Below, in pieces: positions 7,535-9,088 of a stretch of 64,000 nucleotides of DNA. The stretch's first letter is position 1. Each line of letters begins with the position of its first letter. The notes beneath the pieces are model-generated. The model saw only the letters and a program-made list of their open reading frames with translations. It was not told the DNA's origin and searched no databases. The position numbers were made by a program, and so were the translations under genes. The DNA lies in IMG/VR virus record IMGVR_UViG_3300045988_080648; one strand, written 5' to 3'. The DNA comes from a virus.

Positions 7535-9088
7535 ATGGAACATTTAGTTCTTATTGGTATTATCGCAGTTGCTATTATTGTACTGCTTGTTATTATTGCT
7601 ACAATGTATGTTAAAGCCCCTCCTTCGATGGCATATATTCTTTCAGGTTTTCGTAAGGAGCCACGAGTACTTATCGGTAATGGTGGAATAAAAATTCCTG
7701 TACTTGAACGATTGGATAAAGTATATCTTGGTCAAGTAACAGTTGATGTTAAAACTTCACAGCCAGTTCCTACTCATGATTTCTTAGATGTAATGGTAGA
7801 CGCCGTATGTAAAGTTAGGGTAAAACCTGATACAGAAGGCACTAGACTTGCAGCTAAAAACTTCTTAAATATGAATTCTGTTCAGATTGCTGCTCAGGTG
7901 AAAGATTCTTTGGAAGGTAATATGCGTGAAGTAGTAGGCTCTCTTGATTTAGTTAGAATTAATACTGATAGAGATGCATTCTCTGATGAAATTCAGAAGA
8001 AAGCAGCTCCTGATATGGCTAAGTTAGGTCTTGAGATTTTGTCTTGCAATATTCAGAATATTACTGATGAGAAGGGTTTGATCCGTGATTTGGGTGCTGA
8101 TAATACAGCAGCTATTCAGAAAAATGCTAAAATTACTCGTGCTAATGCTGATAGAGATGTAGCTAAGGCTCAGGCTGAGGCTGACAATGAGGCTAATGAA
8201 GCACGAGTAAAAGCTGACACTATTATTGCTGAACGTAATAATGAGTTAGCTATTAAGAGAGCTGAACTGAAGAGATTGTCTGATATTAAGAAGGCTGAAT
8301 CTGATGCTGCATATGAAATTCAGCGACAGGAACAGCAGAAGACTATTAATATCAAGACTGTAGATGCTGATATTGAGAAGACTCGTAAGGAGCAGACCTT
8401 GTCTGAGGAGAAGATTAAGATTAAGCAGAATGAGTATCTTGCAGATGTAAATGCTAAGGCTGATGCTGATAAGTATCAGACAGAGATTGATGCTCAGGCT
8501 GCTTTGGAGAAACAGAAACGTGAAGCTGAGGCTGAAGCTTATAAGGCAGAGCAAACTGCTAAAGCTGTAAAGGCTAAGGCTGAAGCTAATCGTTATTCTC
8601 AGGAACAGGAAGCAGCAGGTATTCGTGCTAAGGGTGAAGCTGAAGCATATGCTACTCAACAGACTTTGACTGCTGAAGCTGAAGGTACTAAAGCTAAACT
8701 TTTGGCAGAAGCTGAAGGTGTAAGGGCTAAAGGTCTTGCAGAAGCTGAAGCTATGCAGAAAAAGGCTGAAGCATACAGTAAATATGGTTCTATTGCTGTA
8801 ATTGATATGCTTTCTAAACTTAATGAGAAAGTTCTTCCTGATATGGCTAAGTATATTGCTGAACCTATGAGTAAGATTGGCAATATGACAGTTTATGGAA
8901 CTAATGGTTCTGAGGCTTCTGGTATTTCTGGTAATGTACCTGCTATTATCAAGCAGACTCGTGACATTGTAAAAGATGCCACAGGTGTAGATATGGCAGA
9001 TATTATGAAGGCTAACACTATTGAAGCTAAGGTTAACAAGAATGTTAACGTTAATGGCGATGTAGAGAACACCAATGTAAATGTATAA
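7535..9088 (+). CDS. flotillin/SPFH (band-7) family membrane protein. N-terminal TM helix, SPFH domain, then a long Ala/Glu/Lys-rich coiled coil (AEAEA repeats).
   Basis: ORF track. The domain order is typical of bacterial flotillin YqiK/FloT-like proteins. Codon usage differs from the neighbours (GCT, GAG, AAG rich). Confidence 0.7.
   Translation: MEHLVLIGIIAVAIIVLLVIIATMYVKAPPSMAYILSGFRKEPRVLIGNGGIKIPVLERLDKVYLGQVTVDVKTSQPVPTHDFLDVMVDAVCKVRVKPDTEGTRLAAKNFLNMNSVQIAAQVKDSLEGNMREVVGSLDLVRINTDRDAFSDEIQKKAAPDMAKLGLEILSCNIQNITDEKGLIRDLGADNTAAIQKNAKITRANADRDVAKAQAEADNEANEARVKADTIIAERNNELAIKRAELKRLSDIKKAESDAAYEIQRQEQQKTINIKTVDADIEKTRKEQTLSEEKIKIKQNEYLADVNAKADADKYQTEIDAQAALEKQKREAEAEAYKAEQTAKAVKAKAEANRYSQEQEAAGIRAKGEAEAYATQQTLTAEAEGTKAKLLAEAEGVRAKGLAEAEAMQKKAEAYSKYGSIAVIDMLSKLNEKVLPDMAKYIAEPMSKIGNMTVYGTNGSEASGISGNVPAIIKQTRDIVKDATGVDMADIMKANTIEAKVNKNVNVNGDVENTNVNV

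Follow-up and report, generated by a model that had tools for sequence, protein, structure and literature searches.

A phage-encoded flotillin gene with distinctive codon usage

The flotillin gene and its product

The viral record IMGVR_UViG_3300045988_080648 of IMG/VR is a DNA stretch of 64,000 nt, here called the window. Near its beginning it carries an open reading frame (ORF) which, judged by domain content and family comparisons, is a complete FloT-type flotillin gene. The gene departs strongly from its surroundings in codon usage, most likely as a result of translational selection, and it appears to have resided in phages for a long time. Its main parts are as follows.

7535..9088, plus strand: flotillin gene, 517 aa, full coding sequence with stop (ORF list, Pfam, Foldseek)
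7538..7606, plus strand: N-terminal membrane-anchor helix, residues 2–24 (hydropathy and AlphaFold helix)
7619..8152, plus strand: SPFH/Band 7 domain, residues 29–206 (PF01145)
8153..8872, plus strand: Ala/Glu/Lys-rich coiled-coil region, residues about 207–446 (composition, AlphaFold helices)

A preliminary description, drawn from the letters alone, had proposed a transmembrane anchor, an SPFH domain and a long Ala/Glu/Lys coiled coil, and this architecture was confirmed by Pfam, hydropathy and AlphaFold. The profile search that had been recommended found the SPFH relationship with PF01145 (Band_7/SPFH, residues 29–206) at 2.6e-20 and 73.6 bits, at a cut-off of 23.6, together with PF15975 (Flot, residues 380–466) at 1e-10 and 42.2 bits, at a cut-off of 27. 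On the Kyte–Doolittle scale residues 1–33 form the sole hydrophobic segment, and the 19-residue maximum of 3.6 falls on LVLIGIIAVAIIVLLVIIA, residues 4–22. Residues 207–420 are composed of 22% Ala, 15% Glu and 13% Lys. The AlphaFold monomer features a helix at 2–24, an alpha/beta SPFH domain at roughly 29–180 and long helices at 191–287 and 311–446. Its confidence score (pLDDT) was 74–87 in the SPFH domain and on average 65.6 over the protein, as is usual when an oligomeric protein is modelled as a monomer. From this architecture we infer that the phage flotillin might form large membrane-bound oligomers or microdomains.

A sequence search of the PDB retrieved human flotillin-1 (1e-42) and flotillin-2 (1e-39), then QmcA (4e-7) and stomatin (4e-4). 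With Foldseek, the flotillin complexes 9bq2 and 9l3g were the best matches of the model (E 2.5e-21), followed by stomatin, HflK/C, QmcA, prohibitin and erlin at 1e-11 or weaker. The protein combines SPFH, Flot, a membrane anchor and a long coiled coil, as in the flotillin subfamily, and resembles flotillins more than it does stomatin, prohibitin or HflK/C. The best NCBIfam model was FloT (NF058507, E 4.4e-76); its score of 256.9 bits did not reach the equivalog cut-off of 700 bits, and by the NCBI criterion the protein hence is not an equivalog of the Bacillus subtilis FloT.

FloT (YuaG) of B. subtilis and YqiK of E. coli resemble the phage protein in anchor, SPFH domain, Ala/Glu-rich coiled coil, Flot domain and a length of about 500 residues. 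These two bacterial genes stand in operons with NfeD-type genes, yuaF–floT and yqiJ–yqiK. In contrast, the flotillin described here is phage-encoded, has no adjoining NfeD-type gene and carries tuned codons in a genome of 28% GC. An NfeD-like partner, which the preliminary description had advised looking for, was absent: the flotillin neighbours gave no NfeD match even at E ≤1, and there was none among the Pfam domains in the flanks of relatives. Furthermore, bacterial flotillin loci showed no conserved partner, and no bacterial neighbour had a homologue in the phage. The eukaryotic flotillin-1/flotillin-2 complex (9bq2, 9l3g) is the closest solved relative by sequence and fold, at an identity of about 26%. 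Its SPFH domains and long helical wall suggest a similar dome-like membrane oligomer for the phage protein. Unlike the eukaryotic flotillins, however, the phage protein begins with a true hydrophobic helix and has a coiled coil that is about 90 residues longer, although deletion variants such as that of contig L004 (432 aa) come near the eukaryotic length.

Puzzling SPFH proteins have been described in RaK2-like jumbo phages, in the Schitoviridae phage GIB1 and in a Crassvirales genus, in annotations made in passing (PMC7760394; PMC13239085; bioRxiv 10.64898/2026.08.21.746148). The phage papers that name these genes give their function as unknown (PMC7760394; PMC13239085). Whereas such proteins were described as generic SPFH, HflK/C-like or 'lipoprotein', the protein described here is a full orthologue with Flot domain. 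It stands close to host flotillins and matched the SPFH-containing phage family phrog_200, annotated 'lipoprotein', only weakly (6e-9). In the literature searched, we found neither a link of flotillin with 'crAss-like' phages nor a mention of it in the 15 top-ranked papers on jumbo, mega or huge phages. The gene is a phage-borne addition to the known flotillin family and no new kind of system.

Near-identical phage flotillins span 408–528 residues, with residues 1–31 also missing from the shortest calls. All internal length differences are in-frame insertions or deletions (indels) within residues about 205–410. Two segments are of note in this region.

8168..8452, plus strand: 285-nt segment (95 aa), deleted in some near-identical relatives, e.g., L004
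8672..8770, plus strand: three hendecad repeats of 11 residues, AEAEGTKAKLL / AEAEGVRAKGL / AEAEAMQKKAE, where the Flot domain begins

On either side of the 285-nt deletion lie imperfect direct repeats, GCT(C/A)AGGCTGA(G/T)GCTGA, with copies at 8158 and 8443 and hence a spacing of 285. The number of hendecads differs by plus or minus one unit among relatives, with 11-residue indels in the proteins P0001, P0004, P0005, P0018 and P0032, and a 33-nt tandem duplication at 8672 in L004 and L100 adds one AEAEGTKAKLL unit. In the DNA, the 285-nt deletion and the 33-nt duplication were clean, free of Ns and in frame. Since the repeats are too short and too imperfect for collapse by an assembler, the length variants of the coiled coil are probably real. 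In L004 we also considered a gene replacement, given an apparent flotillin identity of 66–68% despite flanks that are 83–98% identical. This was rejected: by column-wise identity, the L004 flotillin is about 96% identical and carries the 95-residue in-frame deletion.

Codon usage, age and origin of the gene

We ranked the 70 window ORFs of at least 100 residues by synonymous chi2/df. Flotillin came first (5.47) and the ORF at 31073..31753 second (5.21), and the next ORF reached 2.60. Measurement thus bore out the earlier impression that these two genes differ from their neighbours in codon usage. The wording that their codons are GC-richer was imprecise, because several favoured codons end in T and C-ending two-fold codons are at background. 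The GC content of the flotillin gene is 0.40 compared to about 0.28 in the window, and a large share of this raw excess is due to amino-acid composition, as GC1 is 0.559, the highest value of all ORFs, and GC3 just 0.244. Among the codons that had been named as conspicuous, AAG, CGT and GAG were enriched, but GCT was not (0.74 versus 0.66, p=0.2). The deviation is limited to AAG, CAG, GAG, CGT, GGT, CTT and TCT, listed here before four C-ending codons, each with its share in flotillin and in the background.

CAG: flotillin 0.88, background ~0.26–0.27 (p=3e-9, the strongest signal)
AAG: flotillin 0.56, background ~0.23–0.24 (p=2e-6)
GAG: flotillin 0.39, background ~0.23–0.24 (p=0.02)
CGT: flotillin 0.45, background ~0.16–0.17 (p=0.0025)
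GGT: flotillin 0.76, background 0.42
CTT: flotillin 0.45, background 0.21
TCT: flotillin 0.74, background 0.42
GAC: flotillin 0.12, background 0.15
AAC: flotillin 0.16, background 0.13
ATC: flotillin 0.12, background 0.07
TAC: flotillin 0.08, background 0.12

The C-ending two-fold codons GAC, AAC, ATC and TAC are therefore at phage background in flotillin, whereas bacterial homologues use them at 0.4–1.0. According to the wobble rules, the deviating choices are mostly choices between different tRNA species, while NNC/NNT pairs share one tRNA. A shift in tRNA-distinguishing codons that leaves NNC/NNT pairs unaffected is the pattern of selection by the tRNA pool and not that of leftover donor composition.

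The same axis of codon choice runs through a close relative of the window. The window shares a nucleotide identity of about 90–96% with the first ~60 kb of MT835492 (about 850–60460), an unannotated 121.6-kb 'Bacteriophage sp.' record from human faeces. In the whole MT835492 genome, the first principal component of codon usage (PC1) accounts for 23% of the variance and opposes CGT, CTT, CAG, GGT and AAG to TTA, AGA, ATA, GGA, CAA and AAA. Flotillin ranks third on it and a 122-residue phrog_2018 protein second. Close to flotillin on PC1 are ORF 31073, the phrog_2018 protein, the dUTPase, two acidic-tailed proteins and the major head protein, which is the top late gene on this axis.

31109..31753, plus strand: companion codon-bias outlier, 214 aa from ATG 31109 (mechanical ORF start 31073)

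The companion ORF 31073, the most strongly codon-biased gene of the genome, uses AAG at 0.86, CAG at 1.00, CGT at 0.75 and GGT at 0.92, with C-ending two-fold codons again at background. Its Lys-rich product has 88 homologues, none with a Pfam domain and several on contigs of 100–188 kb. It gave no Pfam, PHROG or NCBIfam match itself, and an AlphaFold model with a pLDDT of 88 yet found no match in the PDB (best E 0.066). Judged by its codons and relatives, the protein belongs to a phage-only family and is probably made in very large amounts.

At amino-acid-conserved K/Q/E/R/G/L/S sites, we polarised codon changes by outgroups under parsimony. In the window lineage, three comparisons gave 15, 26 and 21 changes from non-preferred to preferred codons versus 10, 13 and 11 in the reverse direction. 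The flotillin of the related contigs L001–L003 moved in the opposite direction, with 24 and 21 preferred-codon losses versus 8 and 8 gains. Bacterial flotillin genes also are enriched in the same preferred codons relative to their own flanks, and an unrelated 224-kb phage contig shows the same for its flotillin (0.64 versus 0.21). We rejected phage tRNAs as the cause of the bias, as neither the window nor MT835492 encodes a Lys, Gln, Glu or Arg tRNA. In sum, equilibrated C-ending codons, the same bias in phage-native genes and the gain of preferred codons argue for translational selection rather than recent transfer. Translational selection most likely explains the codon bias and would imply high expression, which was one of the two explanations offered by the preliminary description and fits the codon data.

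The other explanation, recent horizontal acquisition, did not hold. In a search of 5.8 billion proteins, the nearest ones outside the phage clade were about 65–70% identical, with none above about 70%. The nearest named bacterial flotillins stem from metagenome-assembled genomes of Alloprevotella, Bacteroidales and Paludibacteraceae (63–69%), and Prevotella flotillins reach 57–60%. Synonymous divergence (dS) is 0.6–1.0 within the phage lineage, 1.6 to contig L011 and saturated versus bacteria, and the ratio of nonsynonymous to synonymous divergence (dN/dS) is 0.04–0.14. By these estimates, the gene is functional, under purifying selection and long resident in phages. Thus there is no close donor, the C-ending codons have equilibrated, preferred codons were gained more often than lost in the window lineage, and the bias recurs in phage-native genes that have no bacterial relatives, among them ORF 31073 and the major head protein gene. 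The gene may serve to illustrate that, in an AT-rich phage, translational selection and not recent transfer can make a gene 'foreign-looking'. A simple test for such genes is to check their C-ending two-fold codons for equilibration with the background.

Flotillin had been called unusual cargo for a phage. This is true for GenBank, where 11 of 50,697 phage records had a flotillin match and two of them are annotated 'flotillin family protein', but less so for IMG/VR, where we found relatives on 123 viral contigs, mostly of 100–424 kb. Copies at 93–98% identity lie on contigs of up to 181 kb in the same order, i.e., AAA-family ATPase, flotillin, DUF8224 protein and 122-residue protein. More distant copies occupy phage contexts that are not syntenic with the window: the L011 flotillin (76% identical) has an OmpA-domain protein, a methyltransferase and GrpE as neighbours, and that of L012 (69% identical, 224.5-kb contig) is near a lysozyme and a YqeY-like protein. 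In a neighbour-joining tree, the window clade and L011 formed a phage-only group next to a Paludibacteraceae/Alloprevotella/Bacteroidales cluster. Other AT-rich viral flotillins were interleaved with bacterial copies of various clades, and there were also deep clades made up of viral copies alone. This interleaving suggests that large phages captured flotillin several times independently. For the window gene, we consider a capture long ago from a Bacteroidales-type host, by an ancestral phage of this low-GC lineage of large human-gut phages, to be about evenly poised between right and wrong, as part of the overall explanation given below. In agreement with a Bacteroidota host, window genes showed no Shine–Dalgarno enrichment, with motifs at 7 of 80 genes compared to 8.5 ± 2.7 at random positions.

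Neighbouring genes and possible roles of the phage flotillin

The flotillin gene is embedded in the following features.

6302..7456, plus strand: AAA-family ATPase, 384 aa, upstream of flotillin (PF00004 5.6e-11; phrog_2376 2.4e-50)
7457..7534, plus strand: intergenic, AT-rich region upstream of flotillin, no Shine–Dalgarno motif
9103..9135, plus strand: intrinsic-terminator-like hairpin and U-run, 15 nt past the flotillin stop
9151..11184, plus strand: 677-aa DUF8224/phrog_1735 protein (phrog_1735 3e-202; PF26675 on relatives)
11197..11565, plus strand: 122-aa phrog_2018 protein, p122 (phrog_2018 3e-32)

The position between an AAA ATPase and a 677-residue protein, as first described, was confirmed, although it is not functionally required. 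On the 177–193 kb contigs L001–L003, the ATPase is reduced to a remnant of 71 residues and the DUF8224 protein to one of 38 residues (at about 7634–7846 and 9611–9724 of the L001 locus after the deletions), while flotillin is intact and 91% identical. It follows that flotillin needs neither flank. The strong terminator that had been noted behind the gene was also recovered, with an 11-bp stem at 9103–9128 that contains 5 GC pairs and is followed by UUUUUCU; its dG was -17 kcal/mol (z = -4.35), a stability that none of 200 shuffles reached. From the layout of the locus, flotillin stands alone as a gene and ends in a terminator of its own. The alignment of the upstream region 7457..7534 is conserved just among close relatives, and a sigma-70 promoter scan gave 30 sites versus 31.9 expected from shuffles.

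An SPFH gene beside a gene for an AAA-family ATPase is reminiscent of HflK/HflC–FtsH, and Foldseek matched flotillin with HflK/C at E ~1e-10. This match is far weaker than that with flotillin, however, and the neighbouring ATPase has no Pfam protease domain and is lost in L001–L003. ATPase and flotillin thus do not form a pair of the HflK/C–FtsH kind. In PADLOC-DB v2, no family matched flotillin at E ≤0.01, and the ATPase showed weak, P-loop-level matches to IetA (best E 4.9e-7 over ~70 residues).

Downstream, the DUF8224 protein has full-length relatives in 531 phage records at 31–37% identity, including Kuttervirus, phiCbK and Bacillus BCP78. Annotations of DUF8224 and p122 in those phages are hypothetical, occasionally and doubtfully 'RNA polymerase', and neither member of the pair has a solved relative. 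In the Salmonella phage Kuttervirus STP55 (L175, 3435–5862), DUF8224 is followed by a p122 homologue (39% identity, 2e-25), with no flotillin nearby. We rejected a conserved set of three genes because the 407-residue protein upstream of the Kuttervirus DUF8224 is not homologous to the window ATPase; the conserved unit hence is the DUF8224–p122 pair. This pair (window 9151–11565) is a widespread module in very different phages. In our neighbourhood survey, p122 was kept beside flotillin in every relative of the window lineage, including L001–L003. We also observed that the flotillins of L127, L134 and L143–L169, which are just 39–41% identical and belong to another tree clade, yet have DUF8224/p122 homologues about 0.1–5 kb upstream. 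A shared genome layout, an insertion hotspot or a functional link could each account for this.

For the phage flotillin as a whole, our best explanation is a highly expressed membrane scaffold of ancient host origin that supports the infected cell, a reading to which we give as much belief as doubt. Flotillin would be made in large amounts after infection from the early/middle arm of the genome, and its N-terminal helix would anchor it in the host cytoplasmic (inner) membrane. There, the long coiled coil might drive oligomerisation into SPFH-type domes or microdomains like those of the solved flotillin complexes. This scaffold could add to that of the host flotillin or replace it, and so keep the membrane organised and intact through the long replication cycle of a large phage, in the sense of host-function maintenance. 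In this scenario, the expression level, the membrane localisation, the oligomers and the benefit to the phage are what we infer. In bacteria, proteins of the SPFH and dynamin types help to keep the membrane intact and to repair it, and they can postpone lysis by phages (PMC8581546; PMC8844932); this literature on membrane repair by SPFH, PspA and dynamin-type proteins makes a role in membrane maintenance plausible.

Host-maintenance genes of the psbA type in cyanophages are an analogy, insofar as a host gene has apparently been captured repeatedly, is under purifying selection and presumably sustains a host function. Cyanophage psbA is an auxiliary gene of this kind. It encodes a metabolic enzyme, however, whereas flotillin is a structural membrane scaffold. 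If phages repeatedly capture, conserve and heavily translate flotillin, membrane scaffolding matters in large-phage infection. The cellular role of bacterial flotillins is debated, and near-identical proteins that differ only in coiled-coil length would then offer a natural handle on it.

Several points weigh against a scaffold of this kind. The flotillin gene of L001–L003 is mostly free of bias, with a preferred-codon score of 0.37 versus 0.29 in the flanks and a GC3 of 0.15, lower than that of its flanks. As the bias was mostly lost there and the protein kept, heavy translation is not universally required. Codon usage is the one line of evidence that points to high expression, the polarised counts stem from parsimony over few sites, and top-ranked bias genes such as that for dUTPase could be host-derived, too. 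With regard to origin, the Bacteroidales-type host is assigned indirectly and the tree carries no support values. Finally, the data do not separate membrane maintenance from defence evasion, phage exclusion, lysis timing or protease control.

The phage flotillin might instead act as an anti-defence mimic that co-assembles with host flotillin or displaces it, thereby blunting membrane-targeting abortive-infection effectors or altering access to membrane proteases such as FtsH. An identity of 63–69% with host-type flotillins would suit such a role. Human flotillin-1 and flotillin-2 are less alike than this, yet they form mixed complexes (as in 9bq2 and 9l3g). A gene of the early/middle arm that is apparently codon-tuned for high output would also be in agreement with a mimic, and the natural length variants of the coiled coil could reflect an arms race. 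Moreover, SPFH proteins connect PspA with the membrane, and phage infection is among the stimuli that the psp operon answers (PMC8581546; PMC11153139). Against this, PADLOC defence models gave no match, no anti-defence neighbours were recognised, and a dN/dS of 0.04–0.14 gives no hint of diversifying selection apart from the indels. The ATPase neighbour, having no protease domain and being lost in L001–L003, moreover does not provide an HflK/C–FtsH-like pairing. We therefore consider a mimic unlikely, if worth bearing in mind.

We may also speculate that large phages of Bacteroidales and other gut bacteria captured flotillin repeatedly for an early membrane microdomain or cage, i.e., an active membrane-takeover device. 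Such a cage would perhaps shield the infected cell from membrane-acting abortive-infection effectors or organise membrane-bound phage assembly, it might act together with DUF8224 and p122, and coiled-coil length might tune its geometry. This bolder idea we regard as quite unlikely.

An abundant early membrane protein might further block the injection of rival DNA or delay holin-triggered lysis until the large virions are finished. No exclusion or lysis-control protein is known to be a flotillin, which counts against such a factor for superinfection exclusion or lysis timing. The membrane anchor, the position in the early/middle arm and the gene's own terminator would agree with it, as would the weak match to the phrog_200 'lipoprotein'; DynA, a host membrane-remodelling protein, does delay phage lysis in B. 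subtilis (PMC8844932). In the window, however, neither a holin nor an endolysin adjoins flotillin, and a lysozyme within 4 kb of flotillin was seen just in the unrelated L012. A role of this kind seems decidedly unlikely to us.

Very unlikely is a joint membrane-associated module of flotillin, DUF8224 (677 aa) and p122. The adjacency recurs in deep viral clades elsewhere in the tree with the 39–41% identical flotillins, and L127 and L134 have DUF8224, p122 and flotillin directly adjacent in this order. In addition, p122 is kept in L001–L003 and is the second most codon-biased gene. But the DUF8224–p122 pair does without a flotillin nearby in phages such as Kuttervirus STP55, among the 531 phage records that hold it, DUF8224 is deleted in L001–L003, a terminator separates it from flotillin, and both proteins are missing within 6 kb of flotillin at 47 of the 85 viral loci. 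The adjacency is accounted for equally well by common ancestry of the genome layout or by an insertion hotspot.

Un-ameliorated codon composition from a recent GC-richer donor is hardly credible given the divergence and codon data above, even though the gene stems ultimately from a host and has 63–69% identical homologues in Bacteroidales, the moderate-GC bacterial copies L019, L022, L025 and L028 also favour AAG, CAG, CGT and GGT, and the positive GC skew in the window means that coding-strand C-to-T decay could in principle outpace G-to-A.

Genome context and further observations

Of the 103 ORFs in the window, 99 lie on the plus strand, at a GC content of about 28%. They include genes for helicases, a primase, a Sak4-like annealing protein, a ligase, a DNA polymerase, NrdD, a PRPP synthetase, a sigma factor and homing endonucleases, and flotillin is found near the start of this replication and nucleotide-metabolism arm. 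On the minus strand of MT835492 (L008, L009 and L010), the part from ~65 to 121 kb has a coding coverage of 0.05–0.5 with the standard code. With TAG as a sense codon it is 95–100% coding and contains ORFs of up to 3401 aa with dozens of in-frame TAGs. As this late half is coding only with TAG as sense, amber stop-codon reassignment is apparent, and the late genes appear to use amber recoding while flotillin appears to lie on the standard-code arm. A suppressor tRNA was not found in the window or in MT835492. The late half encodes the major head protein (phrog_11589, 2e-8), which had one other match, an unannotated contig, among the 50,697 phage records.

A tRNA cluster at window positions 12391–13516 comprises Asn-gtt, Thr-tgt, Ala-tgc and Gly-tcc. 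At the same place MT835492 has tRNAs for Asn, Asp, Met, Tyr and Ala, and the differing sets indicate that the tRNA repertoire turns over between near-identical phages. A 60-residue ORF call at 13350–13532 with a GC3 of 0.47 overlies two of the tRNA genes. Upstream of the AAA ATPase gene, 5519–6301 is a region of ~780 bp without a plus-strand ORF of at least 60 residues. It contains a terminator-like hairpin with a 14-bp stem at 6019–6050 and just one ORF call, a GC3-rich one on the minus strand at 5631–5903. The region could be regulatory or encode a non-coding RNA.

Homing endonucleases of the HNH and GIY-YIG types are located at 38449–39210, 44462–45469, 50587–51795 and 56423–57442. The DNA polymerase ORF at 54605–55834 (409 aa) matches just profile positions 658–1015, and the NrdD ORF likewise covers just part of its profile; mobile elements may have split some of the core genes. 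Finally, the window has a PRPP synthetase-like gene at 16116–16925, and its syntenic relative L004 a NAMPT-like gene at 17118–17299. By their assignments, the two genes suggest a phage NAD+ salvage module, and one study reports such a module in gut jumbo phages (PMC11662467).

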